In this document: positions 17,442-63,018 of the stretch, piece by piece
Layout of the letters: the number at the start of each line of letters is the position of its first letter
Numbering within the stretch: the first letter of the stretch is position 1
Origin: a virus
Lineage: Duplodnaviria > Caudoviricetes
Reading direction: 5' to 3' (one strand)
Length of the DNA stretch: 64,000 nucleotides
IMG/VR virus record: IMGVR_UViG_3300028888_000057
Position numbers and translations under genes: made by a program
Notes under the pieces: model-generated
Databases searched by the model: none
Seen by the model: the letters and a program-made list of their open reading frames with translations, nothing else
Told to the model about the DNA's origin: nothing

Positions 17442-17558
17442 TCACCACCTTTCTATGTTGTCGTCTCTCCCCTTTACGTGCATTTTCGAAAGGTTCGATT
17501 TTGAACGTTTTTAAACGAAATGATAGTATTTTGAAAGTCTCAGATTAAATAGGGTAGG

Positions 17559-29500: not shown

Positions 29501-32500
29501 GAAAAACTCTCTGTCTTTTTGAGACATATCTCTATGATTTTCCTGAGCTCTAGACGTATATTCTTCGGCTTGACGCTTTTCTCTAGACTCTCTAGCTATC
29601 GCAGCTGCATAAGCGCGGCCTTCGTCATCTAATGTTTTTGCGTCAATCATTTTATGCTCCATTGCATATTGAACATCTTTTTCGACTTCTGCAAAAACGG
29701 ACTCATTATCCGCTCTTCTAGCTAAGATATGCGCGTCTTCTCGAGGATTATATCCAATTACACCACCAAGATCAGATACATATTTTTTAGCTACATCGTC
29801 CCAGTGCCCAACTCCAGCAAATGCCTTATATGAAGTTGCATTTGTTTCAGGATTCGGAGAATGCAAATTTTCATAATATTCCTGAGCATATTTGTCCATG
29901 ATGGAATTGTAGAAAATAGACTGAATAAGAGATTCAGCTGCTCCTTCTGCGCTAGACTTATAGTCTATTGTATATAGCAATCCATCATTTTTATTTCGAA
30001 GCATTAAGTCCGGTTTCGCGTGTGTCCGTTTTGAAGTGTCATATCCGACAATCTGGCCGTCTTTATCTCTTATTGGTATTTGAATGTTGAAATCTTTTTG
30101 CATCGGGATTGCGCCGAGGCTTTCTCCGTTTGGTCCATAACTATAAAAATCTCCTTCAACATTCACAGGACGTTCAGTGTCGAAGCCAAGATTATTTAAA
30201 GACTTAATAAACTTAGCTGATGATGAAACTGGATTATTTTTAGTCGGAAGTATTTTATTTAATTTTTGAACAGCTGTGTTACTTCTATCGCCTTTTACTT
30301 CAAATAAAGGCTTTTCACCGTCTTTGCTGATTCTCGATATGTTTATCCCGTATTGGTTTAATTTATCATTATATCCGCCAATATAAGCATCAGTATAAAA
30401 ATCATCTATAGATCTTCCATTTAAAGTTCCATCGGCCGCTGCTTTAAAATATTGCTCGAACGCCCCATGCATCAATAAACCTTGAAGGGTATGCTCGTTT
30501 TCAAACGGTTGATTTCGTAGTTCTGCTTGAGCCTGTAAGATTTGATCAGCAAGATTATTAAAGCTTTTTATTGTCGTTTCGGTGTTTCTTGCACCAGATG
30601 GAGTAAACTCAGTTGTATTTAGTCTATATTCTTTATCTGGCATCCAGTGCTTAAATGATGTCCAATTCATTTGAATATGATCATCATCCCAAACGCCGTT
30701 TTTTAATCTCTCTTCCTCTGCTGCTTTCTGAGCTTCTTCTTCTGCTTTCGCGTCATATGAAGTAATCTTCGCTTGTTCTTTTATTGCATCTCGGACCGCT
30801 GAATCAACAGCTTTGTCACTCTGCCTTTTGCTTTGATGCTTCACAAGACGATCAATTAAACCAAACCTGTCTCTATTTTCTTCAACGTTGTTTCCATTCG
30901 CTATTTCTGTTAAAATACGATCTCTTTCAGTTTGAAGGTTTTTAACAGTAAATCCTTCTCCGCTTTCAAGTTCGTGAATGCGACGAACAAATCTATTGTA
31001 TTTTTTATACTCTTCTTCGTCTGTTGAAACATTTCGACCGCTTAAACTGGCCTCCCAACGTTGTGCAATATCGTAACCATTTACGATATCTTCATCTGTC
31101 ATAGCTCGACCAGTCATCATTTCAGAGAACTTTTTAGCGTACCATCTTGTGGCTTGAGCTTCAGATGACGCGGATTTTCCGTATTTGCGTTCAATTAAAC
31201 GGTTTACATTATTGTTAAAATCGGAGAAATCTGTTGAACCGTTTTCATAATCTATTGCTCGCAAAGCAACAGCAAGTGCTCCTTGAGGGCCTGAAATAGT
31301 CGCGAACTTAACTTTAAAAAGTTGATCAAGAGCTTCTTCTTCTTTTTCGAGATATGGATCTCGACCATCTTCTTCTGCTAACTCATTAAGTTTTGTCACA
31401 AAACGAAGATAGCTTCCGCCATTACTAAGAAAAGATTCAGTATCTTTATCGAGTTTGAGTTCTTGACCTTTCGTTCTCATATCGGAAGAAGCAAAATCAT
31501 AAGCTTTCATTCCTTTATAAGCAAGCTTCCACTTTTGAGGATCTGAGTCGGGAAGATCCATGGCGTCTCGAATTATTTTCGAAGCAGCGCCCATTGCTCT
31601 CGTTGATTTCTGATAATTCTCAAGAGCTTTAATCCTACTTTCAAGCACATCTCCAGTTTTTGCTTTTGGTTCTTCTATATTACCTTTATAGCTTTCTTCT
31701 TTTTCTATTTCTGCTTGAGCTTCTTGTATTTTTTTGCTTATATAATCCATATGTGCATACGAGGCATCTTCAAGTCCGGCATACATACGGATTGTATCTC
31801 CATCGAAGTCTCCAGTGTTCATTTGATATGCTTGTTGAGTAGTTAAATATATTGCATTATCAAGCTGCTCTTGTGTAATCCCGAATTTTCCTAAAGCTTT
31901 AGAAGCCATGTTGTAAGCAACAATGCGCTGATCTGGCGCATCCGGATTTCTATTAAAAGCAGCACGTTTATTAAATGAAAGATTTTTGCCGCCTGTAGCA
32001 ATTCGACCTGTATTGTTTAATTCAGCCGTTGCTATATTTTGTAATTCTTTAGGTAAATCATCTACTGTTTTTCCGGCGGCTTCTAGTAATGGCTCTAACC
32101 ATGCCATAGGAGTAACAGCTGCTACAAGATCTTTCGCTTTGACTTCGTCCGGAAGAGCTATATAACCAGATCGTTCTTTTTCTTTAAGGCCTCTAATTTG
32201 ACTTTGAATATACGATTCAGCTTCTTTTGAGTAAGCGAAATTAGCATCTTCGTCTAAAAGTCTAGAGTAATACGGGCTTCTTCTTAACGCTTCAATTCTT
32301 CCTTCTGCGCTTTGAAGATGGAAACGTCTTCTCGCAAATTCTTCTTTTGACTTTGCTTGTGTTTTAGCGTCAATCCCTATTGCCGCAGCAGTCTGCTGAG
32401 ACATAATCGTCGGATCCGAAGACAAATCGTATGCTGTTCGCATAACCATCCAATGCGGAGTAGCACGATCATGAAATGCACCTTGTTCCTCAGGAAGCAA

Positions 32501-34936
32501 CGTAACAATCCCGCTTGATGAATTCACACGACCTTCTTTTCGCGCTTGTTCATATCCGGCTTCACCATATTCTCCAACGTATGATTTTTTATCTAAAAAT
32601 TTAAACCCTTCAAATTGCTTCACGGATGAATCTGTAAGAATTGCTCCGATGTCGTCCGCATTAGCTTTAAAGAATTTTTGACGTCTTAACTCGCGTTTCT
32701 GATCGTCTGTCAAACTACGTCCTTTGCCCATAAGATCAAGAACATCTTGTTTGTCCGCAGTTGCACTTGGAGCCCAATACATTAATTTGCCATTTTCGTT
32801 TGAAACCATCCAATTGCCATTCGCAGATTCTCCAACTTCATCTGGATTAAATGTTCCCATAATAGATCCAAACATATAATCAAGATCAACAGGATTCATC
32901 ACGTATTTAGCAAAGCCCATCGCTGACCGCATTTGCACTGGACCATTTTTAAATAATTTGTTACTTCCTAACGCAGCTCCGTCTATGCGGTTCGGTTTAC
33001 CTTCATATTTTTTTCCTAAAGCATCATACAATGCTTCCATGTTCATAATACGAGTCTGGAAAGGTTTTTCAAATTCACCAAAAACCTCTTCGTAAGGCAT
33101 AGAAGATGACGCAGATTTAGAAAAGTTATTTATTTGTTTTATAAGTTTATCTTCTGGTATATCTCTCAAACCATTAGCATTTAGACCGCCAAAAAAAGAT
33201 GGGATATGACGTTCTTCAGCCCATGTGTTAATTTGTTTTTTAAGATCATTTTCAATCAGCGAAATCGAATCTTCATTTTGCATTAAATATGAATATTTTC
33301 TTCCGCCATATTCATAATCTTTACTTACAAGATTTTTTAATTCTGGGAGTCGACTTTCATTGATTGTTCCATCTTTTAAAAAATATGGCTTTGTTGATAA
33401 CGTCAAGATTGGCGGCGTTTTATAGATCGGCTTACCTGTACTCTCATCGCGACCAAATCCGAACGTGCCATTACCAACTCCGAAGCTCATATTGTTTCCG
33501 TTGGAATCTTTCCAGATGTCGGAAATAAGTTTCATTATTGGACTGTTAGTTCTTACAATAAATTGATCGTCTTCTGACTGATCAAATAAACCTGTTTTCT
33601 TTTTCCAGTTTGGATCACTTTCAACAAGACGACCCGTAGAAGAATCAACCCTTGTACGAGGAATAATAAATTGAGTCGGCGTACCAACAGTTTTTATTTT
33701 CGAACCTGAACTTCTATATTCAATTGGAGATCTTAAATAATCATTTACATTAACATTAGAATCGGCAACGATAGAACCGTCTCGCGAAAGAAGATCTAAT
33801 ACACCAATAGCAGACCTAACGCGTCCGCTCATGCGTCGATCTTGACGAGTATTTTCGCTGAAATCACGAATGTCTGAATCGTAAAAAGCATATCCTCTTC
33901 TTGAATCAGCGATTTGCCTAAGCGACAATCCTGCAAGTTTTCCAGCTTGAGCTCTAGTCAAACTTTTAGCCCAACGAAGCTCACCGCCTTCTCGTCTTGC
34001 AACGCCAGCCGCCTCTAAAATATCATAAACGTCAGAAGCATCGTCACTGTGTTCGATATAATCTTGAAGTTCTTTATATAATCCGGTTTTAACATTTATT
34101 CTTTGCTTTGGACTTTTTAAAGACTGTCTCCAGTTTTGAATATCTTGTTCTTCTGCTGACCCATTATTATAGTAAGCTCTTCTGAATTGTTCTGGGATAA
34201 TATCATGTGCATAAGTATGCCGTCTACCTGCTTTAAAAGGCGCTTCTGCGAGAAGAGATTGTCCAATTGATCGAGAGGCAGATGTATTATTTGACAGCAA
34301 CATTAATCGTAAATTGTTTTTTATTTGCTGATCCGTAAATTCTTGTCCGTTTCCTGCTGCTTTAAAACTATTTTTTATCGCGTTGTCGTTTGCTAAAACA
34401 GAAACATACCGATCTAAAGTAGGAGTTTGACCTTTGAATTGCTTCGCATTTAACTCAGCAATCCTGTTATTAACAGCGCGATTCATGATCGTAGGCGCGT
34501 TTTGTTTGAATGCGTGTTTACTCCATCCTAAATCCTGATCGTATGCTTCGTTGATCGCATTGATTCTTGCCGCAAATTCACGCAATCCAAGACTTTTAGT
34601 TATTAACGATGTTTCATCTAAACCTTTTCCGTAGTCCCTTTTCATTTGATTAATTAATCCAGAAACAGTTCTGGTGACATCCATAAATGGAGCAACCAAG
34701 GACTGAGAAAAGTTCTTGCCAAATTTAGTAATTTGCGATTGAAGCGTTGTTAATCCGTTTGAATACAAATTTAAGCTTTCTAAAAAATATTGAACAGACT
34801 CATTTTGGGGATCGTTAAATAGATCGATGGGGCTGCTCTTAACATTATTTCTTAATTCTTCTACTGCCTGACTGGCATCGTCAATCCCTTGTTTATTTAA
34901 TGTTGTTAATATCTCAACTGAAACAGTATTTGACAT
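17588..34936 (-). CDS. Giant tape-measure protein fused to N-terminal RNA polymerase and PD-(D/E)XK nuclease domains
   Basis: 5782 aa, RBS AAGGAGG, between tail chaperones and Dit. Tape core at ~aa 2610-2910 (FDASMNEIQ…ATTAAEIGKGM…GTALQTVFSRM…AGTRQTN); C-terminal GGLVDYTGLAWVDGS.SKPEAFL; NTGDFDGD (D1043); PDL…IDYK at aa ~1642-1660. Confidence 0.9.
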   Translation of the reverse strand: MSNTVSVEILTTLNKQGIDDASQAVEELRNNVKSSPIDLFNDPQNESVQYFLESLNLYSNGLTTLQSQITKFGKNFSQSLVAPFMDVTRTVSGLINQMKRDYGKGLDETSLITKSLGLREFAARINAINEAYDQDLGWSKHAFKQNAPTIMNRAVNNRIAELNAKQFKGQTPTLDRYVSVLANDNAIKNSFKAAGNGQEFTDQQIKNNLRLMLLSNNTSASRSIGQSLLAEAPFKAGRRHTYAHDIIPEQFRRAYYNNGSAEEQDIQNWRQSLKSPKQRINVKTGLYKELQDYIEHSDDASDVYDILEAAGVARREGGELRWAKSLTRAQAGKLAGLSLRQIADSRRGYAFYDSDIRDFSENTRQDRRMSGRVRSAIGVLDLLSRDGSIVADSNVNVNDYLRSPIEYRSSGSKIKTVGTPTQFIIPRTRVDSSTGRLVESDPNWKKKTGLFDQSEDDQFIVRTNSPIMKLISDIWKDSNGNNMSFGVGNGTFGFGRDESTGKPIYKTPPILTLSTKPYFLKDGTINESRLPELKNLVSKDYEYGGRKYSYLMQNEDSISLIENDLKKQINTWAEERHIPSFFGGLNANGLRDIPEDKLIKQINNFSKSASSSMPYEEVFGEFEKPFQTRIMNMEALYDALGKKYEGKPNRIDGAALGSNKLFKNGPVQMRSAMGFAKYVMNPVDLDYMFGSIMGTFNPDEVGESANGNWMVSNENGKLMYWAPSATADKQDVLDLMGKGRSLTDDQKRELRRQKFFKANADDIGAILTDSSVKQFEGFKFLDKKSYVGEYGEAGYEQARKEGRVNSSSGIVTLLPEEQGAFHDRATPHWMVMRTAYDLSSDPTIMSQQTAAAIGIDAKTQAKSKEEFARRRFHLQSAEGRIEALRRSPYYSRLLDEDANFAYSKEAESYIQSQIRGLKEKERSGYIALPDEVKAKDLVAAVTPMAWLEPLLEAAGKTVDDLPKELQNIATAELNNTGRIATGGKNLSFNKRAAFNRNPDAPDQRIVAYNMASKALGKFGITQEQLDNAIYLTTQQAYQMNTGDFDGDTIRMYAGLEDASYAHMDYISKKIQEAQAEIEKEESYKGNIEEPKAKTGDVLESRIKALENYQKSTRAMGAASKIIRDAMDLPDSDPQKWKLAYKGMKAYDFASSDMRTKGQELKLDKDTESFLSNGGSYLRFVTKLNELAEEDGRDPYLEKEEEALDQLFKVKFATISGPQGALAVALRAIDYENGSTDFSDFNNNVNRLIERKYGKSASSEAQATRWYAKKFSEMMTGRAMTDEDIVNGYDIAQRWEASLSGRNVSTDEEEYKKYNRFVRRIHELESGEGFTVKNLQTERDRILTEIANGNNVEENRDRFGLIDRLVKHQSKRQSDKAVDSAVRDAIKEQAKITSYDAKAEEEAQKAAEEERLKNGVWDDDHIQMNWTSFKHWMPDKEYRLNTTEFTPSGARNTETTIKSFNNLADQILQAQAELRNQPFENEHTLQGLLMHGAFEQYFKAAADGTLNGRSIDDFYTDAYIGGYNDKLNQYGINISRISKDGEKPLFEVKGDRSNTAVQKLNKILPTKNNPVSSSAKFIKSLNNLGFDTERPVNVEGDFYSYGPNGESLGAIPMQKDFNIQIPIRDKDGQIVGYDTSKRTHAKPDLMLRNKNDGLLYTIDYKSSAEGAAESLIQSIFYNSIMDKYAQEYYENLHSPNPETNATSYKAFAGVGHWDDVAKKYVSDLGGVIGYNPREDAHILARRADNESVFAEVEKDVQYAMEHKMIDAKTLDDEGRAYAAAIARESREKRQAEEYTSRAQENHRDMSQKDREFFLSRYPSDLETMNQIRSSIFREMDLPERKFNRFENYRNKLMEVLPEEVVNAVAYGYDSDSPVREKLTDDIRQKLRLLSQIDKLGSEAAVTDWDKAGEDITNSLNGVQRSNTMKTLSGVTSRLLAAKSSRDFIKKMEVGGESIYRGYITKMGPTGEYKELADAYLSPEEQAELFNVDSDNTKLAEVAREQKKRFLDSIDAEEVAMEEIKPALDRYLKSDKEAQDADWSSLIGEIQDPAEMIEAAFADKRKQIQQKIDNWSNEIKEASEKIVNPDITEDEAEAYAKIIKDRQDRIQQADSFLESDKPEAIVQRDLQQRLGLITQTPEEIVENWRKQRRVAVAGNKLTQEESDAILYEEFQRTGLMPDYTRDASSIMSKEEETKVDKINSQADDMLARLNRQRFDQLAKYQRELTNGNLSSTDRADIKVQQLKDQITAQRDVLGLDDPLRNEYDKILDNKDLWDQYSKRNREDEYFREVMKNAQTRVSKRNLDTLFSGEDFSAKEEFDQMYDQMKLQRDRYKAEHINDPDFDRNAFEQEYSNRRIKARAREQVSFNREQRNLQLDAEGYQLDAQLQGRSMTRDEEIQYRLAQAKASRNARAEKLRRAKRYSEQEALLLANTDPILEQRITEQYDNNQILRQLQRDNALTSSAMQGDIRVHNMQRAFSQANRQQQMRYSRSRIAQALYGVEQRRENAREQVYSIDRQKEDAQRNQDYYTKQLEIAKKSGDQEKINAAQFGYDQATQQLKNLDKASQEAKSQLDQLTSGGQTAQAVFGELGQAIGMVAQRLGRQLFQKALQETKRFVKEFDASMNEIQAITMKSNGEMRDVRTGTINRAIGLRTSVSNVATTEAALYRQGLSDTEVADRTESIIKFATVTKLNVAEATKIITTALQNDLVPSAEAAMDALVALGDSAATTAAEIGKGMQKAAASAKVAGVSYEELTALLTIGTSDTQLSGTQVGTALQTVFSRMRRLSLTGYTADQNGEKTTASDAEAALAAVGVDLWDNKTVGQMRSAYDVMLDLSKVWKNLSDAQKSIVTNAMAGTRQTNIFSTLMEGMSEDNGATLEKYLGLAEGSEGVTQSKYEIAMQSLAASMDTVRSSWDAVVESFVNGGDITNVLDLLSGFLQNIANGSNAAPILGGIAAGIAAIAVALNSVKLGPLAGIATILAALGGFAVASYGTNLLAGLGSTETEREKFEKKNAKALETLGTTKSYNDNDVKTQQDAIDEVKKLGKVYDSLNEKTDAAAKATAGNNLRAALLDLAKVFPNVSDSVQSAIEKLSGWEEAVKSAEDTAQKFKKDADKENVDNANQYVRDYLPENYRTLEGENITESRASEFEIGLKRALSNEQFIRGQGVNFSDDLTKEQAMSINFRDGGWLGLVEGEDENLARKRRANVFKRLWSSDQGKYRNSLKTFLSDSRYEDILQWLDGTQSLDLENEGVLDRISNAYEYVLDQFFSGNFTEARNQEQRKQNIQQVIDDAINSYKTSGTLEQVASLGNTSVEVIESGLRTLLTSQLYDENGNFKREYTRNGQSYSWLNDEGEFNEYALSNWFAQTFDYDNLSNAANEIKSYSETDAPYTIQGVNQTFWNQEDAEKYARDNNIALTKIKNNGTPVYPSTAQKSTQTVTQERQPALAKTEARNRYLNRVLEANTEQSLFDIYDLLAEGAELSNVQRDNPLLYELEQASHRQIRSGVRWSDYQSIAAAMLNGEDTSKAISSLMFNALQGNPNFVEDFTKENGNYSELFKVFQNFFGEQETQRIVEAARNRTLSTDADLQDYVARTLAEKGIKVGTGRTITNKEATDLARNLYGRNFQSLAEAQTVMTEEGWTTDEWSAIQSKYPEIISLLQMKPEQRAEEQEGINLDRNIQIKLNISGISELEEAGKVVQGTTQLLEDLQKNGNVSIKTQLQFGSEMHENQQRALMLENGTYEEQNAAMRAYGISDIEIQKDRAGSLRRAELMAENDREAFAGTLNELARLGQVELAADWAKQNGYEITDALYSYEDAVKFMDRYGFNVLSNGDVVGQSSGKINDKMTQLFWDMTQGKYTYTGKGANIDQVNPFLNAQQHYSQTDIAQAQRRILNGFSRDQFEDKNLYDTAAQSMSTYGTEFRRMVERNREAVSAGGTAVYGSAEMRRAKELADLEASQNEREADRQQLTEQLNMSASRYVRENAQQIVSARDIFTNGSFAEQLGLISGYSDTMRALQQAQYGLEGGNTAENRGYISSLLGLSDEQVDEMLQNGQEGELQTAINDKVKEFYQKLATELLPEELLTSLDFDTMSLDDIISSLDQVPEDLRELIEPFLNAINEAKNGVHSDNTYKSLSDIASSSLESTRKRGAAMSEVYNTLWGEGGEASFSERVSALQQNKNVDWGSIDNGLLYMVNSFGQEGSAITEDMINDAYYNALYGRKASPETQRATMNSLFGGNMSGQNMIDTYRDWMQNQEQYAAEINAFNSLDHSDELANILKSEGVSANTAEKALRKYNEQVNEDKLKDVTQFSKGSANLASALSKIKKGGKDASEGTEMIRKNIEGFQDQMTAISKAQGKSGKQLDTKTLGFIDSLFPEISSDEIKQLSKDRLAELLDGAEDAVNEAATDDFQAIWDSMVDDLSLNYDLSNITVNPDGTLNLDALDDTARAAVEEAIARLEAYAGDLASLTFVQEEGKEKINLKALISKNANGKYHGRGGGGGGGGKSAADKLLEKQKFDVSAIQHDQKMLEIQEKNYDRYNDDAAYRDNVNQQIQVQQRLADQYQKNIQEIENMRRSTKEGSDDWNKLTESLWAAQEAFAGVAEAVDALYAKMDAQQKQLYEYNSTLLQHKQTMSEIDYTFYMNVNDPEAALGEIDKQLTGINDIESEDRRRRAEIVSAMEDEYLRNGESDRYRDLVGERDSLTEKIAKSVNDRITLDATRLDVQRQYQQNEAIPYTHRLNMISSQMERADLNEDTESYNKLFEEQENIYKEIEERNNKHVTQLESLRDYYNSKGQTQNALNTTQEINSLLEQNDNMLTQRDKARKDKLEKEQNDTRESLQRQTMTEEHQNNGYALMANAYKRAGNHGAYRDMMQRQIANWRKMITVQKSLLAIEVQKLKAMVKETEEYYKQLQLVQEIEGKITELEANIANAEMDIMEDRVDEILEGIDRINDLSSHIQKLIKDQGQIYQNQGNWDAYFVMAEKRREELTSSVADMTAQAAQLKAEMGSVPYGSGAWDNLRQKVLSLEESISSARVELENFDRELEGIKVDRLLDEINRHEGNRTHNITLMQYEQTRYQTNGELTNYGIMLQKEIDYRKENTTAMEEELTLLREELENINLSEKDYYRLSDAIKKKEEALLQNNNAIEKNNKLLRQNEQAIRKTRLELEQMVLKVIEDNKKKQRDMLNNTVEMQNIILNVIKRRYQDEWDLEKETLDRKKDALEKEKQLINERLNYRRQMMNAENKYSELNDYQRQLALISADPTRSKESKELTRKIDELRQDIRWDEASQQAEAATERIEDEINAINEYVQIHGENLQEMLLDANNFAAEVKEVLSRSYSDIVLWLQQNDIDYQNSLDERKKQLEEGWKETWMAMKGIVETYWDEINEILSSQDSFMKFMYENSLDYANASVTGQLQLASQWQDGWTNAASAVSVALQAINYTPDIHEDFTPQNSEEAILEALGWDPDFSWYNNGSGYNPSFTSFDDHKNDGKEKGEEEDTKPDDTQPDQPTTEPTPAPTNPSDYAGTGDVVPKSEGPVAPEQPAPSANTGTQQKQQASKSTYDVYDKNGFKTSYSVQASSKTEAQKIVEKEYGSSYSATTHTSTSAGVGGSNVATGVPPLNIDISKPFNDLSNAVGNVLGSFFEGISDLGAKAAEANKQNQEKLLTNKHITGPNAEGGLVDYTGLAWVDGSMSKPEAFLSAYDTANIKALTDALNYVNIEPFRVPNLDKINTSNQTIGDINITINGAEMKDDADFEDVARRVGQEFTKQLRKEGLNLASYTF

Positions 34937-38517: not shown

Positions 38518-41276
38518 TTACCTCTTGTAGTAAGCGGTGCTGTACGCGCCTTCATCGTTACGCTTAGCGTCCCAAATATGTTCAACACAGGTCGTTACTC
38601 TGTGCCCGCCTTTCGGCAGCTCTGCATCGCTGCAGAAGTTCTGACTATATCACGAACTCTTACGAGTCCCTCTTCATTTCGGATCACTTGATCCTACTCT
38701 ACTCGCTCGATCTCTCGGCTTTCGATAGTCGATAGGCATTTATTCACACACACGTTCAAAATAATGACCATTACACGGTTTGTTGTGTTTGATTGACCAA
38801 AAAATTGCTTCAGACGTTCTGTTGATAGAACGTCCTGCTTCTGCGCCGCTTCGGAAAACTTCGCCAGTTGTTAAATCTTTCACTGGAACATGAATTGAAT
38901 TCTTGTTGCCTTTTCTTGCAGCAGAAAAATTCTTCTTCTGCTCTTCGGACATCGGACCAGTTTTAAGCCCTTTATTCCACGGCGCATTGCCTCGGAAATG
39001 TGATTCAGCCAGTTTCTTCTTCTTTTCCTCTGAGAAGTTAAGACGTGCTTGGCTAATCTTCTGTCTTGTTTCTAGTGGCAATGTTCCACGATTTGGTTCT
39101 TCCAGCAGAATATTGTATCCATGTTCCTGTATGTTCGATTGATACTGCTCTATGTAGTATTTCTCTAATCTTACGCTTTCTTCGTAAGATAAGTCTTGAG
39201 CAAGTATTTCAAGTTCAAAGTTTTCCCATCCGTATTTACAGATAGCATTCCAGAATTTTGGACAGGTTTTATACCCGCTTCCATCTTTCTGAGCTCTTGC
39301 GCTAACCTTGCGCATTGTTCGGCCAATGTAAACTTTTGAATTAATCTTGTTAGTGTACTTATATACAATATTGTTGTTAGCTAATAAACTTTTTTCGTAT
39401 ACATGCACTGTTTAATCACTCCTCATATAATCGCTTTTTTGTGTGTGTGAAATTTAGCACGGGATTGTCTTCTTCTCTCCATTACGTCAATTTTCGAATG
39501 GCTTCAAAAATTTGAACCAATAGTATATGACAAAAGATAAGATAGAAGAGTTTCCCCGTTTAGAAGAGTTATTCAATGCAGCTTACGCTGCAAGGCCCCA
39601 GAGTTTATTTAGGGCTTGGAGTTCAAAGCTGAAGGTCGCAGCGCTCTTATAGCTCGTGTCCATACCAGGAATCTGAGTGATTCTAGCGCGGAACACCTTA
39701 ACGATGTAGTAGCCAGCAATAGCGCTCTCGGAGCAGTCGTCACCAGAGCCGTAAACCGGCCAGATTGCACTGCACTCGCCGATAGCGGATTCCTTATTGG
39801 TAACGATAGCTTCCTGCACTTCCTTCGTGTAATTGTACACGACATCCACGAAGTCGATATCATCGTCAGCAGAGAAGGTAATCTCCTTGCCATTGATCAG
39901 GTAATGACCCGCCGTCACAGTACCAGACTGAGTGGTGATGGGTTCCATACCAGCAATGTACACAGACCCTTCGATAGGAGTCTGCAGCAGGGTGATCTTG
40001 TGGTTAGCATCCGGCTCATGCCGCTCGCCAGTAGGCAGAGCATAGTTGGCATTCGCCGCATACTCGGTCTTGTTCGCCATAGCGAACAGGTCGGCATCAA
40101 ATTTGCCACACGTAAAATTCATCGTAAAAGTCGATGATCCGGGCAAAACAGCCACAGGGAACCATTGTGTTCAACGTAGGTCGTTACTCTACGTCCGTCT
40201 TTCGACAGCTGCATGTTGCCATGCAGATCAGACTATATTTATACCCAAGGATTATGCACATACTTGGGCCTATCTCTTTCGGGCCACTTGGCCCTACACC
40301 TTGGTGAGAGGTTAGTCGTTACACTTTACACAACACAATATTTAAATACTAATCCATCTGGATGCTTACGTGCTCCAGACACGTATCTCCAAATAGTCCT
40401 AGGCGTGACACCAAGTTCAGCGGCGCATTCTCTTACTGTTTTCCAAACTTGTCCCGTCTGAACACATGTGACACTATGAGGTTCTTTATTTGGTTTATAA
40501 TTGTCATCATCCACATACTTATAATGTTTGCCTTTACATTTATATCCATGATACAGACTTTCTTGCAAGCTAGCACTGTTGACATCGAGATCTTTTGCGC
40601 AGTAATTTGCACATTCCCACATTTCGCCCGTTTCAATACAAAGTACGGCTCTGGCGTTAGGGTTTTTACCACCTGACAACCCTGCGCCATCTCTACCACC
40701 AGACGTTATGTTGTATCCATATTGTCTTTCGTTGGACTTATACTTCGCAATTAATTCGATCTCAAGTGCATCAGCTTCTTCTCTGGATAAATTTGTTTTC
40801 ACAATTTCATGAACAATATTATCCCATCCGTATTTTCGAATTGCATTATAGAACATTTGTCCTTTGTATCTATGCCCTGTCGCGCCCCATCTTCTACGAG
40901 GATCGCCAGTACATTGACCGACATACTTTTTTCCATTTGCAACGACAGTATGAACATAAACAGTATACATATTAATCACTCCTTGTTATATCTGCTCAAC
41001 AATTGTGCTATTGTTGAGATTGTGTTGTGCTGTAGTTCGGGATTGTCCTCAAAGAGGAGTTCAACCGAATTAAGATAGACTCATTCATGCATTACTGCAT
41101 GAAGCCCCGTTTATTTCCAGGGACCACCCGGCGTTGATGTCCATAGTTTCAATGTTTGCGCTAACGGTCGCAGCGGTCAGTTCATCGAAGTAGAACGCAT
41201 GACCATCGCAGCGACGGAACACTACTTTCGGGACGTCAGCAACGTAACCCTTAAGAGCAGCATTATAAGTTGCCAT
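38518..41276 (-). CDS. Major tail tube protein, spliced from 3 exons (41276-41119, 40162-39611, 38572-38518; 254 aa)
   Basis: Exons of 158+552+55 = 765 nt join in frame: …INAGWSL|FPVAVLPG…FELQAL|DAKRNDEGAYSTAYYKR*; gene lies after head-tail genes and before chaperones. Confidence 0.85.
38573..39610 (-). mobile_element. Group I intron 2 in tail tube gene
   Basis: Exon ends GCCCU, which pairs with intron GGGGC (U·G at splice site); P7 elements UAUCGACUA and GAUAUAGUC; terminal G (…GAACAUAUUUG); removal restores frame. Confidence 0.85.
38740..39408 (-). CDS. Intron-encoded GIY-YIG homing endonuclease
   Basis: IVYKYTNKINSKVYIGRT…GYN; NUMOD-like ETRQKISQA, PWNKG, FRSGAEAGR. Confidence 0.9.
   Translation of the reverse strand: MHVYEKSLLANNNIVYKYTNKINSKVYIGRTMRKVSARAQKDGSGYKTCPKFWNAICKYGWENFELEILAQDLSYEESVRLEKYYIEQYQSNIQEHGYNILLEEPNRGTLPLETRQKISQARLNFSEEKKKKLAESHFRGNAPWNKGLKTGPMSEEQKKNFSAARKGNKNSIHVPVKDLTTGEVFRSGAEAGRSINRTSEAIFWSIKHNKPCNGHYFERVCE
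40163..41118 (-). mobile_element. Group I intron 1 in tail tube gene
   Basis: Exon ends CCCU, which pairs with intron GGGG; P7 elements UAACGACUA and AAUAUAGUC; 3' end …GUUGAACACAAUG; removal restores frame. Confidence 0.85.
40326..40979 (-). CDS. Intron-encoded GIY-YIG homing endonuclease
   Basis: YTVYVHT…KKYVGQC…RRW…GYNITSGG; two C-terminal NUMOD1-like repeats (VLCIETGE, VTCVQTGQ). Confidence 0.9.
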   Translation of the reverse strand: MINMYTVYVHTVVANGKKYVGQCTGDPRRRWGATGHRYKGQMFYNAIRKYGWDNIVHEIVKTNLSREEADALEIELIAKYKSNERQYGYNITSGGRDGAGLSGGKNPNARAVLCIETGEMWECANYCAKDLDVNSASLQESLYHGYKCKGKHYKYVDDDNYKPNKEPHSVTCVQTGQVWKTVRECAAELGVTPRTIWRYVSGARKHPDGLVFKYCVV

Positions 41277-52778: not shown

Positions 52779-53110
52779 TGTTTATCACCTCAATTTTTAA
52801 CTTTGGGAAGCTACTTCTTCCTTTATGTCACGTTTCGGATGGTTACGCTGCGAAAAGTTGTTAAAAGATGGAAATAAGTATTTTATTTGTATCAATGGAT
52901 ATTAAATGCTTTGCTTTTCTCGAAAGAGTTTTTTGTATGATTCGAAATATCGTGTTTTTAAATTTAAGAGGAGGGAGCTGGCCGTCAGGCCAAAGCTCCC
53001 TCTTTTTTTCTTATAGGTTACATAATGAAGATTGTTCGAAAAAGAGATGGAGGTTAATTTTCAAAGAGGACTTGGAAGGAAATAACGTGATATAAAAGGC
53101 TTGCACAGAA

Positions 53111-53150
53111 AGGTTTGAATTTGAAATAGGAGGTTTGAATTTGAAATAGG
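53111..53150. repeat. Perfect 20-bp tandem duplication AGGTTTGAATTTGAAATAGG x2
   Basis: Directly visible in the divergent intergenic region. Confidence 0.95.
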
Positions 53151-53306
53151 AGTTGGAAGAGAATATATATCGAGCAATTTACGCTCACAAAAACTTTTCA
53201 GCGTAAATTACGGCCCTTTTTCTGCAACGAATATCCCAACATTCTTAGAATGTTCTGGATATTTCTGATTTTCTGAAATGGGTCAGGTAGCTCAAAAATC
53301 CAATAC

Positions 53307-53342
53307 AAAAAAAGAGAGTCGCAGCAATGCGGCTCTTTTTTT
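53307..53342. terminator. Bidirectional terminator-like hairpin
   Basis: A-tract, GAGTCGCA-GCAA-TGCGGCTC, T-tract. Confidence 0.6.
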
Positions 53343-53367
53343 GATAAAAAAGAAGGAGGAAACAAAC

Positions 53368-53661
53368 ATGGATTACATCAGTATCATCAAAAAGGAAGCA
53401 GCTCCCTACATGGATCGTCTCTCGATCCGTAGAGAAGCAATGCTTAAGCAGGATGAAGAGCTTTACGAGTATAGTTTTTCATCTGCTTTCGATTGTGCCA
53501 AACATCATGACCACGACAGGTTAGTATCAGCCGTTAAAAAGATTAACGTACAGTTAATCAAAGACGGTAAAAAGCCTCTTTGTAGCGATGATCGCTACGA
53601 GGCAGCAAAGTTTTGCTGCATTATCAGCGGCAGAAAAGAGTTAGTAGACTATGTTTACTAA
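53368..53661 (+). CDS. Early hypothetical protein
   Basis: RBS AAGGAGG, ATG 53368 (MDYISII…), followed by a terminator. Confidence 0.7.
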   Translation: MDYISIIKKEAAPYMDRLSIRREAMLKQDEELYEYSFSSAFDCAKHHDHDRLVSAVKKINVQLIKDGKKPLCSDDRYEAAKFCCIISGRKELVDYVY

Positions 53662-53728
53662 CAAAAACCACAAGGAGAGACTGAAAAGCCTCTCCTTTTT
53701 TTATTATTATCAAATAAGGAGGAAAATT

Positions 53729-53893
53729 ATGTATAACTCTCCATACAAACTGTATATCGATAATGATTATATTGAGTACAAGTTCATTACCGATGCTGCA
53801 CAAGCGTGGGCAGACGAACCCAACGCCAAAATATTCGATGCTAATGGCATTGAGGTAGAACAAGAGGACATCGAATCAGTCCTCTGTTGGTAA
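53729..53893 (+). CDS. Small early hypothetical protein
   Basis: RBS AAGGAGG, ATG 53729 (MYNSPYK…). Confidence 0.65.
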   Translation: MYNSPYKLYIDNDYIEYKFITDAAQAWADEPNAKIFDANGIEVEQEDIESVLCW

Positions 53894-53979
53894 CTTTGAC
53901 AAACAGGAGATCCAAGCGGTCTCCTGTAGTCAGAGCTACTGTCTCTGAAAAAAATAAAATAAGAAAGGTGGTACCCATC

Positions 53980-54378
53980 ATGATTAACATTATCGACATT
54001 TTTCCTGCTCTTGCAGCCGCATTGGCAACGTTCCTTATTTGCTTTGTTGTTTACAAAGCGGTAACGGGAAACCAAACAGCAACGATTATTCTTACCGCGA
54101 TCGTTAGTTTCATAATTCTCATTGGAGCAGCTGCAGCAGGAACAGCAGAAACACAATACAAATACCAATTAGAAATTTGTATTGTTAATGTCTCCGCAGA
54201 AGAAATCAATATTATTCGTTTGTCAGATGGAAATGAATATGCCATCGACTTCGAATATGGTTGGTCTAATGGACTCAACATTGTTATCTTTAACAATAAC
54301 AATACTACATCGCCTTATGATGATATTGTTATTGTAAGAAATGAACTGTTCTATGGTTTTATTAACAGCAACATTTAA
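53980..54378 (+). CDS. Membrane protein (two N-terminal hydrophobic helices)
   Basis: RBS AAGGTGG, MINIIDIFPALAAALATFLICFVV…ATIILTAIVSFIILIGAAAAG. Confidence 0.65.
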   Translation: MINIIDIFPALAAALATFLICFVVYKAVTGNQTATIILTAIVSFIILIGAAAAGTAETQYKYQLEICIVNVSAEEINIIRLSDGNEYAIDFEYGWSNGLNIVIFNNNNTTSPYDDIVIVRNELFYGFINSNI

Positions 54379-54520
54379 ATACTGTTGCTTTTTATACGGC
54401 ATAAGGTAAGCCTGCTCCACGGTGGACGAAACCTTGAAACATGCGGGTGTTTGCCGCAGTAACCTGCAACGGTTACACATTATATGCACCTACTGCATAG
54501 TGTAGGAGAAGGAGGATACC

Positions 54521-54976
54521 ATGTCTATCAATACCATCACACCCATAAACTGGTTTGAAGATTTCAACGGAGCGAATTTTGGCTTTATTAGACAAGCAGC
54601 TTGTAATAATAATTTACCATTCGACGATAAACTGAAAACCATTAGTTTACCAAGATGTATTGAAGCCGTTGATGGGTTCGGGATTCAGGGAAGCTTTGAG
54701 AACCATCAAATTGTATTCACCGTTGTTGTTGTTAACTATGAAGAATGTGGTGGAGATCCAGATGATCCAAATTGGGAATATCAACTGATCCCAACGCTCT
54801 GGCTATACAGTGGGACATGGGACAAACACAAAATAGAAGGGTTAGCTTCTAGCAGCCAATTGGCAGTTGGCAAAATGCTACAGGGCATTTATAGAAACGC
54901 AAATGTTCATAATCCAGAGGTCGCATCTGCATTAAAGACACATAAGTTTAAATTCAGAACATTCGGCTTTTGTTGA
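54521..54976 (+). CDS. Early hypothetical protein
   Basis: 151 aa, RBS AAGGAGG, two terminator-like hairpins downstream. Confidence 0.7.
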   Translation: MSINTITPINWFEDFNGANFGFIRQAACNNNLPFDDKLKTISLPRCIEAVDGFGIQGSFENHQIVFTVVVVNYEECGGDPDDPNWEYQLIPTLWLYSGTWDKHKIEGLASSSQLAVGKMLQGIYRNANVHNPEVASALKTHKFKFRTFGFC

Positions 54977-55251
54977 AGACAAAAGGTAGGTATAAAAGCC
55001 TGCTTTTTTATTTCAACATACGTGAACAGAAGAGCTCTGAGTAATCAGAGTTCTTTTTTATATATCAACATGCATGAAGTACTCGCTCATGCATTACAAC
55101 CGCAAAATCCCAGCGGTATGAGTGTGGCAATTGGGTGCCGTGCTATACGAAACATAGCTCAAGGCCGAGCAGGCGCATCTTAGCTCAAAGATGCAAATGT
55201 TTATCAATTCTATTTTGTTGTCTCTTAAGTGAGACAGAAAGGAAGGAAACC

Positions 55252-58200
55252 ATGTCTAAGATTAATACTTCTATTGCTGTCGTCTCCGCTCTGATCAACG
55301 AAGGGAAAATTCCGACGAAGGTGGCAAATGCTTTAGCGATTTCTCTGTCTGTAACCGAATTAAGACAGATCGTTGCCAACAATGCTCTTGACCGTCTCAT
55401 GAAGATTGAAGGCATCGGTGAAAAGAGAGCTGCAACCATTATTAAGGTGCTTACTGGAAAGATCCCTCAGCGGCTTTCCGAGAGCCGCACCGGCAAGAAG
55501 ATCAGCACTCGGGAACCGAGCGTAGGGTTCTCCCTTCGTTCGTTCGCTTCCAAGACCGTAATGAAGGAATATGTTCCGTACATCGAAGCGATAAATAATA
55601 TCGAACTGTACAAAGAAACCGAAAACGGTCGTATGCTCGATGACGAAGCATTGCTTGATGCCCGTCAGGCATATGCTGAACTCAAGAAGTTTTCGAACGA
55701 ACTGGACGAAAAGAACTTACCGTTCTCTCTGTTCCAGAACGAAGGAACTATCTCACGGATGAGCCGCAGCATCGGCTCTGACATTTTCGGGATCGATTAC
55801 ACCTCAAAGAAACCGACAACCGCATGGATTACTGTCGAACATGGAATCCAAGAGCTGATCAATTTCAATTGGCACGTTTTCGGCAACACGAAAACCGAAG
55901 CCGAAGCTGAAAAGAATCGCCTGCAGCAGGAAATCGAACACAGACTCGGTAACGCCGGTGTTCGGATGTATGTTGGCAACACGAGCGTAGAAAGCTCAAT
56001 GATCCACTACGGTGGATTCGCAGCTTCAGCATCTCACCAGAAAGACGAGAAGTTGGTTATGGCTGACGCAAAACTTATGAAGCTTCATGAAGAAGCAATC
56101 TGGTTCACTATGAAGATGGCCGAAGTATTTGATCTTGAGATCAACGGAGCGGCAATTTGGAAAATGAGAGCAAACCTTCTTAGACCGATCCGTTGCGGTC
56201 TCAAAATCAAAGGTGGTCGCCAGCTTACGCTGAATGACATCGAAATTAAGGAACCGATCATTGTTAATCGTGTCATCAAGAACGCTCGAAAGATTGGTGA
56301 ACTGAACGAAGAGACGGGTGAAATCTTCGAAGACGGCAAAATGGCTGTTGAAAAGACCTTGGCCGACGGCACTCTTATGTCTACCGTGGAACTCGAACAG
56401 TGGGGTCAGACCACTTCTTATGGCATCAAGGGATGCTCGGGAGACGGAGCCGCTCCGATCAAGTACGCAGCGAAACTGGAAGGGAAAGAAGTTCCTTTGA
56501 TGAAACCCATCCTTATGGATGGGGGATGCTGGAAATTCGATAAAGTCAGATGTTCCTGGGAAGAATTCGTTCGTAGAGCGAACAAGCTCGCCGAACGGTA
56601 TCCGAGTTTGAATAAACTCTGGCTGCTCCGCGAAGGAGACGAGCTGGAAGACGACGTTAAAGTTCGTCGACTGACTCGGAGTCTTATTCAGCAGTGGATC
56701 CATCTCGACGCTCGCGACATCCGTATGATCACTAAGAAGAGCCGCAAGAGCCTGAACAAAATGAAGACCTTAAAGGGTGCTATCAACATGATGGCCGAGA
56801 CTGGACGGGAAGAAAAGAGCCAGTTGGGTAAGGTGTTTGAGAAAGCACCGTGGCTGGTACTTAATCCTGAAGTTCAGAGATATCTCGAAACAAGGTTTGT
56901 CCGGAAACAGAGGGAAGCTGCGGCATGTAAGTTTAAGACGACTGGGTTTTATCCTTACATTCAGGAAGACTTTGTTGCCATCGCCCAAATTTGGGTGTTT
57001 GGTGCCGATTCCAACCGTATGGATCTGGGCGTGTTGAAGGCAGGCGAAATGAGCGTCGCTGATGTGGCACCCAAGCAGAAAATGCTGGCAGTCCGGTTTC
57101 CTGCGAACTATCAGACCGCTGCCGTACGTATCAATGTGCCTTGTCGCGAAGCTTTCAGTTCTTGCAGCAACATCTGCATGATCTCAATCTACGACGATAT
57201 CCTGATCCGTCAGGATGGTGACGTAGATGGTGACGAAATGGCCATCATTCTGGATGAAATCGCAATAGCTGCGACTGAAAGAATGTACGAAGAGTTCAAT
57301 CCTCCGGTTGTCGTGTTCGCACACGGAGGAAAGGCTCCGAAGAAAAAGATCAGCAATCGGGCTGGTCTTATTGAAACTATGTATAATGACTTGTGGAAGG
57401 CCAAGAAGTTTGATGGCGTTGGAAAGTATGCCAATCTGGCAACTCTTTGTTGCCACCTTGCTTCTCTGGCTTATGCCCATGGAGATATGGACGAAGTTAA
57501 GATGCGCCTTGTTCAGATGTCTCTGGCATCGACTGGTGCTATCTTAGCGATTGACCAAGTGAAAGGCAACGCCGTCAGCGACGAGCTGATCGAGCGACTG
57601 GAACAGATCAGCAAGTCTGTCAGGAACCAGTGTCTGAACATGATGCCGTTCACTCAGCAGTTCGTCAAAGGCCTGAAGGCTGATGAAGTTCTGCCTGAAA
57701 GTGATGCTTTGTGTGATCAGATGGCTGGTCTGATCATTCGCGATACCAACGACAAGGAAACCAACGGTTATAAACTTGAAGTTGGTAACGCGCAGTGGAA
57801 CGCAAAGGAAGCGAAGCGGGCTATGCTCGACTTTGGCCTGAGAACGACTTCACTCCGGAACTCTCCTGTTCCGAAGAGCATTCTCGATACACTGGCGGAT
57901 AACTGGTTCAACGACAAGAACAATGCTGATCAGGAGACCTTCCGTCTGATCAAGGCTGGTCAGCCCGTTCAGATGAAGGATCTGGTACTTCTCATGTGGA
58001 GAAATGCATGTGCGTTGGAATTCCGTATGACCGGGGATAATCTGACCGCCAAGCGGGAAGAGTATCTGAAGATTGTACGTGAAATGCTGTATACACAGGC
58101 AACCTCTGCTAAATGGGTTGGTAATGACGGGCACGTATTCACCGATGCCGAAAAGAAAGCTTCTGTCGTGAACGTTCTGGTGTATGATGCACTTAACATG

Positions 58201-58500
58201 AGCGGCAAAGGCAATGGTATCGATGATGACAAGAAGGGATCCTATGCAATCTTCGTACTGAAGGTGTTTGCGAAGGAGATCCTCTGGTGTCTCGAACGGA
58301 ACCATGCAGATGCCAACCTGTTCAACATCAAGTATGCGACTGCTACCGATCTGGAGATCGAAGAGTCCGCAGAAGCGATTGAGAACATTCTGGCCGACGG
58401 GTGGGGCAACATTGACGAAGATCAGGAAGTGTGGTTCTCCGATGAGGATAACTACACAGACTATGATCTTGGCGACAATGACTATGTAGAAGAATGTTAA
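55252..58500 (+). CDS. Single-subunit double-psi-beta-barrel DNA-dependent RNA polymerase (YonO-like), 1082 aa
   Basis: RBS AAGGAAGG, ATG 55252; ordered motifs ADG, Q…GIKG, ILMDGGCWKF, AVRFP and QDGDVDGDE (DxDGD at 57220-57234); N-terminal HhH (IEGIGEKRA). Confidence 0.82.
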   Translation: MSKINTSIAVVSALINEGKIPTKVANALAISLSVTELRQIVANNALDRLMKIEGIGEKRAATIIKVLTGKIPQRLSESRTGKKISTREPSVGFSLRSFASKTVMKEYVPYIEAINNIELYKETENGRMLDDEALLDARQAYAELKKFSNELDEKNLPFSLFQNEGTISRMSRSIGSDIFGIDYTSKKPTTAWITVEHGIQELINFNWHVFGNTKTEAEAEKNRLQQEIEHRLGNAGVRMYVGNTSVESSMIHYGGFAASASHQKDEKLVMADAKLMKLHEEAIWFTMKMAEVFDLEINGAAIWKMRANLLRPIRCGLKIKGGRQLTLNDIEIKEPIIVNRVIKNARKIGELNEETGEIFEDGKMAVEKTLADGTLMSTVELEQWGQTTSYGIKGCSGDGAAPIKYAAKLEGKEVPLMKPILMDGGCWKFDKVRCSWEEFVRRANKLAERYPSLNKLWLLREGDELEDDVKVRRLTRSLIQQWIHLDARDIRMITKKSRKSLNKMKTLKGAINMMAETGREEKSQLGKVFEKAPWLVLNPEVQRYLETRFVRKQREAAACKFKTTGFYPYIQEDFVAIAQIWVFGADSNRMDLGVLKAGEMSVADVAPKQKMLAVRFPANYQTAAVRINVPCREAFSSCSNICMISIYDDILIRQDGDVDGDEMAIILDEIAIAATERMYEEFNPPVVVFAHGGKAPKKKISNRAGLIETMYNDLWKAKKFDGVGKYANLATLCCHLASLAYAHGDMDEVKMRLVQMSLASTGAILAIDQVKGNAVSDELIERLEQISKSVRNQCLNMMPFTQQFVKGLKADEVLPESDALCDQMAGLIIRDTNDKETNGYKLEVGNAQWNAKEAKRAMLDFGLRTTSLRNSPVPKSILDTLADNWFNDKNNADQETFRLIKAGQPVQMKDLVLLMWRNACALEFRMTGDNLTAKREEYLKIVREMLYTQATSAKWVGNDGHVFTDAEKKASVVNVLVYDALNMSGKGNGIDDDKKGSYAIFVLKVFAKEILWCLERNHADANLFNIKYATATDLEIEESAEAIENILADGWGNIDEDQEVWFSDEDNYTDYDLGDNDYVEEC

Positions 58501-59083
58501 ACCATAATACACGGGAGCCGCACGATCGGCTCTCGTAATTGTGGCTTAACACACCACAATATCACCCCAAAACCCTAACTTCGACACCGACCGATTCTAT
58601 TAGGGCGGGGGAGTTTTTTGGGACGCTCTAATTTTACGGGGCCAATATTTTTTCGGGCCCTATATATTTTTCTCGCAATATATATTTTCTCCATTGTTAT
58701 TATATTATCTCCGTCCCACAAGTGGGACTACAAATACTTTTGTGAAGAATGTTGTTTTCAAACATTTCTGTGTCACGTTCTTAATTGTCGCGGCGACCGA
58801 ATATTTTACAGGGCGGGAGAGATTTTAAACCCTTCGGACTTACAATTTCTTTCCATCCTTATTTTATCAATCTTTCGCCTTTCCTTAACTTGAAATACTC
58901 ACACGGCCCGCAAGCGGGCCTGCAAATACATCTGCGAAAGGAAAACCATCTCCTTTCAAGGTTTCTCATTAATCAATTTTCCTACTGTTCGCACACGATC
59001 CACCGGATCGCAAGCGATCCTGCTAAGTACCCTTATGGGAAAATCCCGTATTACATAATTAAATATTTTAGGAGGTATTGGTT

Positions 59084-61388: not shown

Positions 61389-61643
61389 CGACTTCTCCAT
61401 GTTGCATGTTCGATTGCGTTGCTTCGGTACCTAACTTTGAAGCCATGGAAGTGTGACATAAAGGAGAGAGACTAAAAGTTTTTTCTTTTTTTCTTTCCAG
61501 AATATTTTATTTCTTCGTATCTTACGAGAGATTTTTAATCACGAAGGCGTGTCTTGATGAGGGGATGACTATTTGTCCATCTGAAAACGACAGCGGCCTA
61601 TTTGATTATTTTTTCTCGGTAAATACGTTGAAAGAAGGAAAGG

Positions 61644-61913: not shown

Positions 61914-62345
61914 CGAGAGATTTTTAGTCAAATTCGTTTTGTTTGTGGCAGGATGAGAATTTCTCCACCTAAATATTCAAACAAGCTAATTGGTTTCAAT
62001 TTCATCGTATATTACGAGGGTTCTGAACAAACGTGACTGAATATTACTCTGCAGATTGCAGAATGACTGTCGTATGGCAAATTAGTTCGGTACCGAAATT
62101 TGAAGCCATGCGAAACGAGCCATAAAGGAAGAGGATGTATGAAAGGTGGGTTCGCTCCCCGCTGATCCTTCTTCCAGGCTGTCGGTGTGCGCTATACGCT
62201 TAATCGCAAACCAGCCTTTTGCGGCCGACAGTAATTTAATAAACAGGCTGCTTATCCCGTACCGATGCAAAGAAGAAGAGCAGCCGCTTACCCGATGCTT
62301 ATACAGAATGATATTAGCTAACTGGGTATAGTGTCGGGTTTGTAT

Positions 62346-62420
62346 GGGGCATTAACGCAACGGTAGCGTATCTGCTTTGCAAGCAGAAGGTTGCAGGTTC
62401 AAGTCCTGTATGCTCCACCA
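62346..62420 (+). tRNA. tRNA-Ala(TGC)
   Basis: GGGGCAT/ATGCTCC acceptor with G3·U70, anticodon loop TTTGCAA, T loop TTCAAGT, ACCA. Confidence 0.9.
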
Positions 62421-62972: not shown

Positions 62973-63018
62973 CTTGCCCATTTTCTGAATAGTGGGCATT
63001 CATTAACTAACTCTCCTT

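Follow-up and report, generated by a model that had tools for sequence, protein, structure and literature searches.

What kind of RNA polymerase (RNAP) is encoded by the large open reading frame (ORF) at 55252-58500 on the plus strand of the IMG/VR virus record IMGVR_UViG_3300028888_000057, and which genes would it transcribe? We have analysed a stretch of 64,000 nucleotides of this record (from here on, the window), which belongs to a long-tailed phage with a genome of ca. 149 kb (assemblies of 149,315-149,320 bp). The product of this ORF is called here the stand-alone RNAP, to distinguish it from an RNAP-like domain N-terminally fused to the tape-measure protein. A preliminary description had taken the former for a stand-alone DxDGD polymerase related to YonO of the Bacillus prophage SPbeta, and the two together for a two-polymerase transcription programme. 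The first of these claims is borne out. The comparison of profiles and of a predicted structure indicates that the stand-alone RNAP very probably belongs to the YonO family, as a divergent member to which accessory domains have been added, and that it is an active phage RNAP appears highly likely to us on the same grounds. The second holds in part: a putative RNAP-like domain with an invariant DFDGD is indeed found on the tape-measure N-terminus, but the count of two is probably too low, since relatives of this phage have a third RNAP.

The gene (55252..58500, plus strand, stop codon included) is intact and encodes 1082 aa. The longest frame runs from a GTG start, 55135-58500; the ATG at 55252 is preceded by a ribosome-binding (Shine-Dalgarno) site (GAAAGGAAGGAAACC-ATG) and is the start picked by gene callers in independent assemblies of the same phage. 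The translation contains, in this order, TLADGT, GQTTSYGIKG, ILMDGGCWKFDK, AVRFPANY and RQDGDVDGDE, so that all of the strings listed at the outset (ADG, QTTSYGIKG, ILMDGGCWKF, VRFP, and QDGDVDGDE) are present and in order. The catalytic, metal-binding DxDGD (D657-V-D659-G-D661, 57220..57234, plus strand) can be read directly and aligns to the DNDGD of YonO. It is invariant in an alignment of 31 homologues sharing 31-61% identity, together with G373, Q386, K393, K428, D430, G565, Y567, P568, Y569, R615, P617, N619, D655, G656, G660, E662, and the stretch D768-QVKGN, while D372 is near-invariant (at least 90% of this alignment). Judged by this alignment, the motifs from ADG to DVDGD are a conserved core and not chance strings. 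The family is well represented in metagenomes, with 69 homologues at 32-95% identity, none of which has a name, and when 1.84 billion cluster representatives were searched exhaustively with the profile, 221 were retrieved at E <= 1e-3, 84 of them at E <= 1e-30. No match was obtained by tblastn and megablast of the stand-alone RNAP against 50,697 GenBank phages, nor by sequence searches of the PDB with the protein or with its profile.

The relationship to YonO emerged from profiles. Against the PHROGs there was one match, to phrog_8308 (described as “unknown function”; E 3.2e-17, aa 468-900), a family which YonO, taken from the SPbeta record, matches along its full length with 1220 bits. Aligned by hhalign, the family of the stand-alone RNAP paired with YonO at 97.2% (E 5e-11, 503 columns), placing DVDGD over the DNDGD of YonO, and with an alignment of YonO and 22 YonO-like proteins at 99.4% (E 1.3e-21, 625 columns). 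The AlphaFold2 model, built from the 31-sequence alignment, is confident (predicted local distance difference test, pLDDT, 84.5; predicted template modelling score, pTM, 0.78), and all its significant Foldseek matches in the PDB are two-barrel polymerases, with RDR2 and QDE-1 at ca. E 1e-11 and gp66 of phi14:2, a crAss-like phage, at 2e-5. The independent method VIA-align recovered the same polymerases far above unrelated rows: QDE-1 over 668 residues (Z 21.9), RDR2 of maize (Z 19.1), P74-26 gp62 over 430 residues (Z 14.2), gp66 (Z 9.3), and P23-45 gp96 (Z 7.9). In BFVD the model matched a phage “RdRP” (E 9e-25) and A7XX94 of P23-45 (E 2e-4), which at 616 aa is as long as gp64. AlphaFold2, Foldseek, and VIA-align thus concur in predicting two double-psi beta-barrels (DPBBs) in one chain, and the comparison by hidden Markov models (HMMs) that had been suggested earlier turned out in favour of the YonO relationship. 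Among single-subunit two-barrel polymerases, the stand-alone RNAP would fall into one major clade with QDE-1, RDR2, and gp66 (a virion protein of 2166 aa), from which it differs by its low identity (ca. 10-12%), its biological setting, and the lack of any match to PF05183, the eukaryote-type RNA-dependent RNAP family, at E <= 1 (hmmscan, Pfam).

Both barrels can be located, with approximate boundaries, in the model. The beta-like barrel (DPBB-B; aa ca. 330-475, 56239..56676, plus strand, after model strands 330-474) carries ADG, GQ..G.KG, and CWKFDK, and the beta-prime-like barrel (DPBB-A; aa ca. 560-690, 56929..57321, plus strand) carries GxYPYI, VRFPAN, and the metal-binding loop. In the hhalign comparison the DPBB-B region aligns with YonO and DPBB-A aligns to the YonO tract RSPH...QFDNDGD. 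YonO is a processive DNA-dependent RNAP that transcribes the late genes of SPbeta (Forrest et al., 2017; PMC5467207). Like it, the stand-alone RNAP is a phage-encoded single polypeptide with two predicted DPBBs and DxDGD, unrelated to T7-type polymerases, and presumably it is DNA-dependent too. Unlike YonO, with which it shares ca. 17% identity over aligned columns, it has 1082 rather than 839 aa, with a helix-hairpin-helix (HhH2) domain at the N-terminus and some 90 residues more, a helical extension at the C-terminus, and an acidic tail. It also differs in its setting, the early arm of a ca. 149-kb phage that has a tape-fused RNAP domain besides and, in relatives, a canonical YonO-like gene too. 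The HhH2 domain (aa 1-70, 55252..55461, plus strand) matches Pfam HHH_5 at E 0.001, below the curated cut-off, and in the model it resembles RuvA domain II, the UvrC C-terminus, and the HhH of Hef (Z 7.0-7.6); it is likely a non-specific DNA-binding module. Homologues of 974-1020 aa align just from about query residue 73, which means that they are devoid of this module. The acidic C-terminal tail (aa 1028-1082, 58333..58497, plus strand) is predicted to be disordered (pLDDT <50).

The other RNAP candidate of the window is the N-terminal portion of the tape-measure protein, a giant of 5782 aa (17588..34936, minus strand) with PF10145, a family of phage minor tail or tape-measure proteins, in mid-protein (E 9e-29), which we consider a candidate virion polymerase. 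Its DFDGD (aa 1043-1047, 31796-31810, minus strand) lies within NTGDFDGD. Eight tape-measure homologues (4352-6308 aa, down to 23% identity) all have DFDGD at aa 1043-1230, and D-G, QMR.A...K, R.P, and NTGDFDGD are invariant among them, in the same motif order as in the stand-alone RNAP. For residues 380-1450 AlphaFold gave a model of low confidence (pLDDT 57.7). Its best three matches among 48,161 PDB chains were RDR2, P74-26 gp62, and QDE-1 (Z 6.2-7.4), and the best four Foldseek rows were QDE-1 and RDR2 (E 0.02-0.18), so these resemblances to two-barrel RNAPs are weak but consistent. The claim of little other visible similarity between the two polymerases also stands: BLASTP of the stand-alone RNAP against the tape-fused domain gave nothing significant, and hhalign of the two families aligned just the stretch R-x-P...GDxDGD, at a non-significant E of 0.016-0.16. 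With such values duplication and independent capture of the two RNAP domains are not decidable from sequence.

Six IMG/VR loci hold orthologues of the stand-alone RNAP. One of them, G002, is complete (150,578 bp) and has the same two-arm layout, with an orthologue at 37% identity and a tape-measure protein of 5898 aa. This protein has DVDGD at residue 978, and its N-terminus pairs with the window family at 98.9% (E 2e-17). A second, G001 (94.5 kb), has an orthologue at 56% identity and a tape-measure protein of 5148 aa with DFDGD at residue 1055. Hence the pairing of stand-alone RNAP and tape-fused domain is kept in both of the relatives that cover the structural arm; these tape-measure counterparts were found by reading ORFs, since the single tape-fused domain, used as a genome query, had missed them. 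The YonO HMM has four matches in G002. Besides the orthologue, at E 3e-26, and the N-terminus of the tape-measure protein, at E 2.4e-8, it recognises a canonical YonO-like gene (133884-137454; L020, L024) in two pieces, at E 1.6e-127 and 1.6e-39. This last gene is broken inside the catalytic motif (...LQFD | VDGD...) by ca. 700 nt with an ORF of 164 aa, an insert that may be a group I intron encoding a homing endonuclease. Many of the database homologues of the canonical YonO-like gene are N-terminal pieces of ca. 570 aa. The fragment G004 holds both the orthologue and a canonical YonO-like copy, and the canonical family amounts to at least 810 matches, many with a precomputed PF05183. One canonical member and one tape-fused homologue are each found on a contig of 107,898 bp, and this may be the same contig. 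With a third polymerase present in G002 and G004, a three-polymerase scheme is at least as likely as one with two.

The position of the gene within the phage suggests how these enzymes might be deployed. The minus arm holds the terminase (49902-51548), portal, capsid-like protein, and tail genes, whereas the plus arm begins, after a divergent junction of 590 nt (52779..53368), with four small genes (97, 54, 132, and 151 aa; 53369..54976, plus strand), followed by the stand-alone RNAP, RNase H, single-stranded DNA-binding protein (SSB), and a tRNA cluster. The stand-alone RNAP gene lies 2.4 kb inside the plus arm from the junction, and it is indeed the first large gene there, as had been noted, just the four small ones separating it from the junction at ca. 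52.8 kb. This position beside the structural-arm junction is kept in G001 and G002. The small genes, a putative (pre-)early block, have no Pfam or PHROG match, and most of them are followed by a hairpin terminator-like site, several with a T-run; in the 52-64 kb region there are 20 such sites against 10.7 +/- 3.8 expected. The junction has a tandem repeat (ca. 53104-53150, to 53160) ending GAGTTGGAAGAG. Similar repeats are found at the junctions of G001 (74150-74310) and G002 (98020-98085), and in all three genomes they end GAGTTGGAARAG, followed by AT-rich sequence; they are candidates for a site of packaging, for an origin, or for a region of early control.

The window also has a conserved, promoter-like element of ca. 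31-37 nt with the consensus (TTGAAG)CCATTCGAAAA-N3-4-ACRTAAWGGRGAGA, of which there are five copies scoring 27.6-41.7 bits with a position weight matrix (PWM), against 18.6 bits for the best site in 20 shuffles of the window. One copy (52812..52842, minus strand, 34.7 bits) lies inside the junction and heads the structural arm with its terminase, portal, capsid, and tail genes, and another (17463..17493, minus strand, 40.8 bits) directly downstream of the tape-measure gene. Both are found at the same positions in the relatives, the former at 73919 in G001 and 97850 in G002, the latter at 38675 and 63587, respectively, always on the minus strand. A third (39471..39501, minus strand, 41.7 bits) is located within the structural arm, upstream of the gene 38740-39408, and two others are on the plus strand, after the ssb terminator (61442..61472, 27.6 bits) and ahead of the tRNA cluster (62106..62136, 29.9 bits), where they head later plus-arm units, as copies in G001 and G002 do as well. 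Training of the PWM had included six sites of G002 and left out G001 and G004. The PWM detected six sites, at 22.9-34.5 bits, in G001 and three, at 20.3-23.9 bits, in G004, besides two more in G002. In the window the PWM found no copy before the stand-alone RNAP gene or the four small genes upstream of it. This distribution shows the structural genes and the later plus-arm units to use a phage-specific, promoter-like signal that is absent from the early block. The element is long and contiguous, has a purine-rich GGRGAGA end, and does not match sigma-70 spacing. To judge from these features it looks like a promoter for a single-subunit polymerase. A direct-repeat search of the whole window found no promoter families. 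The early arm of G002 has an element of another kind, a hairpin followed by TTTTTATTTT(N0-2)ACG, in eight copies on the plus strand (98102-106927), limited to the first ca. 9 kb of the plus arm and flanking the orthologue, with one copy ca. 190 nt upstream of it. It is a candidate early terminator/promoter composite that recalls, by analogy, the pre-early block of P23-45. The early block of the window has terminator hairpins but no extended common motif like that of G002.

Upstream of the stand-alone RNAP gene there is a leader of ca. 190 nt (55058..55251, plus strand) that begins right after a terminator of hairpin and T-run and includes a palindrome, ATGCATGA-N9-TCATGCAT. The leader is near-identical in two relatives, L018 and L027, the second of which has a different gene upstream. 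In this L027, which is 95% identical, the 151-aa gene (54521-54976) is missing and the RNAP leader is nearly unchanged. The folding z-score is -2.2, and no structure common to the leaders of nine orthologues, distant relatives included, was detected. A pair, TCAACATRCRTGAA, occurs in two copies upstream of the gene, which is no better than chance. As the preliminary description had it, there is no sigma-A consensus directly upstream; we found no sigma-70-like site in 55058-55251, which is weak evidence; such sites are not enriched anywhere in the 52-64 kb region (20 observed, 23.6 expected).

The explanation that accounts best for all this, and which we consider rather probable, is that the stand-alone RNAP is a non-virion, single-subunit, two-barrel, DNA-dependent RNAP acting in a cascade. 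For the cascade as written here we regard the chances as evenly balanced. Its gene lies in the arm that diverges from the terminase and structural arm, behind the four small genes with their terminator-like hairpins. The enzyme would be made at the start of infection by the injected tape-fused RNAP domain, as in P23-45, or by the host RNAP, and would then read later gene classes from long phage promoters, the best candidate being CCATTCGAAAA-N3-4-ACRTAAWGGRGAGA. The third, canonical YonO-like RNAP, located down the plus arm in the relatives and probably here, might share or complete the late programme. We infer in this scheme the DNA-dependent activity of the enzyme, its absence from virions, the time of its expression, the transcriber of its gene, and the reader of the 31-nt motif. 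A bolder version is tentative, and we think it rather doubtful: a siphovirus of ca. 150 kb, the hosts of which are probably Clostridia from gut or rumen, would run a three-step cascade of three diverged YonO-type RNAPs, independent of host RNAP throughout, in which the injected tape enzyme acts first, the HhH-bearing RNAP reads the 31-nt promoters, and the intron-split canonical enzyme finishes late expression.

The scheme is an extension of that of the Thermus phage P23-45, where gp64 is the non-virion RNAP and gp96 the tape-measure-fused virion RNAP. There the tape-fused enzyme reads the block on the gp64 side, which is the first to enter, and the late genes are read by the host RNAP (Chaban et al., 2024; PMC10770324). 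In the GenBank record of P23-45, a distance of 5 kb separates gp64 from the point of divergence, next to the terminase arm, and gp96 is down the structural arm. The phage described here has likewise a giant tape-measure protein (5782 vs. 5002 aa) with an N-terminal DFDGD domain, and a further gene for an RNAP beside the terminase arm, which lies a few kb away from a divergent junction, with small genes first. The proposed parallel to the virion/non-virion pair is therefore right as to layout, but orthology to gp64 and gp96 is not demonstrable: hhalign of the stand-alone RNAP family or of the tape-fused family against either protein gave no significant pairing. The model of the stand-alone RNAP does resemble P74-26 gp62, the close gp64 homologue, and gp96, and it is closer to QDE-1, while by sequence it is nearer to YonO. 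Other differences are the third polymerase of the relatives, the phage-specific promoter-like motif of the structural arm (as opposed to the host RNAP for the late genes of P23-45), and the host. The only match of the RNAP family in a bacterial genome (L033; JAZQFG010000001.1, a contig of 100,103 bp, 41% identity) is in a metagenome-assembled genome (MAG) labelled as Acutalibacteraceae. Perhaps this is a phage contig that was put into one bin with its host, and it gives a weak clue to a host among the Clostridia (Oscillospirales). From this Clostridia MAG and the 36-49% G+C of the DNA, the host is probably no thermophile.

Several points weigh against the cascade. The fold of the tape-fused domain is weakly supported (pLDDT 57.7, Z 6-7), and as the assemblies begin at different points, “first-entering” is just an analogy. 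The third YonO-like RNAP of the relatives makes the assignment of the 31-nt motif to the stand-alone RNAP ambiguous. In G004 the canonical YonO-like gene has a copy of this motif ca. 130 nt upstream, which fits the stand-alone RNAP acting first and also autoregulation by the canonical enzyme, so that we take this arrangement to favour the former only slightly. Besides, YonO offers no anchor to a characterised promoter, since the PWM found no site of at least 10 bits in SPbeta 1-75 kb, a part that includes yonO and the gap between yonN and yonK, to which the start site of YonO has been mapped; the promoter specificity of the enzyme is undefined (PMC5467207). It could be that the host sigma-A RNAP reads the early arm, with the tape-fused domain inactive or in another role, and that the stand-alone RNAP, with or without the canonical one, is a late polymerase like YonO. 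This is how YonO operates in SPbeta, and the T-run hairpins behind the early genes resemble ordinary intrinsic terminators for host RNAP; moreover, relatives of P23-45 without the tape fusion retain a gp64 homologue, and the weak fold support of the tape-fused domain counts here too. We nevertheless think this unlikely, as NTGDFDGD and the four further motifs invariant in tape-measure proteins down to 23% identity argue for a functional active site, the G002 tape-measure counterpart matches the YonO HMM, and the 190-nt leader has no sigma-70-like site.

Another alternative is that the canonical YonO-like RNAP reads the 31-nt motif, leaving to the stand-alone RNAP a narrow early or middle promoter class, or RNA priming or transcriptional activation of replication at the repeat-bearing junction. 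A role in replication would suit the RNase H and SSB genes that come after the RNAP gene, the adjacent junction with its tandem repeats in three genomes, and an HhH2 domain apt for structure- or non-specific DNA binding, and G002 does have its separate early-arm motif (eight copies, 98.1-106.9 kb). However, the 31-nt motif ahead of the canonical gene in G004 is simplest to understand if another polymerase reads it, and the motif is absent from the part of SPbeta that includes yonO and the yonN-yonK gap. No evidence of a primase type or of an origin emerged, and we give this alternative a low probability. Very improbable indeed, in our opinion, is that the stand-alone RNAP is RNA-dependent like QDE-1 and RDR2, making double-stranded RNA or amplifying phage or host RNAs. 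These two enzymes are its top structural matches, related metagenomic proteins have been auto-named “RNA dependent RNA polymerase”, and canonical YonO-like proteins have precomputed PF05183 matches. But YonO has no solved structure, so that QDE-1 ranks first by default, which does not make the stand-alone RNAP RNA-dependent. YonO, of all characterised proteins the closest to it in sequence, is DNA-dependent and processive, and crAss gp66 and both P23-45 enzymes, which have the same fold, are DNA-dependent too. The stand-alone RNAP itself lacks the PF05183 match, and we are dealing with a double-stranded DNA phage with a conserved DNA promoter-like motif. The cascade remains the reading that we prefer.

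In the literature searched we found no other report of tape-measure-fused polymerases outside the Thermus phages of the P23-45 group. The survey by Chaban et al. has just four non-jumbo phages with at least two single-subunit RNAP polypeptides, in eight rows, and the rows shown mention no tape-measure fusion and have no DVDGD motif (PMC10770324). Here the tape-fused arrangement appears in uncultivated metagenome phages of 36-49% G+C, is of the YonO type and not of the gp64 type, and involves up to three polymerases per genome. The 31-nt motif is a testable promoter candidate for an enzyme of the YonO family, a family whose promoter specificity is undefined. If the scheme is true, such phages would offer compact, orthogonal pairs of single-chain polymerase and promoter, and a natural case of polymerase sub-functionalisation inside one virus.

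Other features of the window can be mentioned briefly. Rfam matched tRNAs and one abiF RNA, and nothing else. The abiF match (39.9 bits, cut-off 37) is in the structural arm beside a tRNA-Asn predicted by ARAGORN (48058-48177, minus strand), and the plus-arm tRNA cluster (62346-63181, plus strand) has five tRNAs by ARAGORN, of which Rfam confirmed three. The RNAP gene is followed by ca. 580 nt of non-coding sequence (58501-59083) with three alike GC-rich hairpins with CAAG or GCAA loops (ca. 58703-58722, 58905-58922, and 59002-59020), each followed by a CTRCWAAKTAC-like sequence; this stretch might represent a small RNA or a site of processing, or else a signal of the hairpin type. Finally, within the structural arm, the genes 38740-39408 and 40326-40979 are, together with their upstream regions, paralogous duplicates (window 38579-40853; repeat families D8 and D10).

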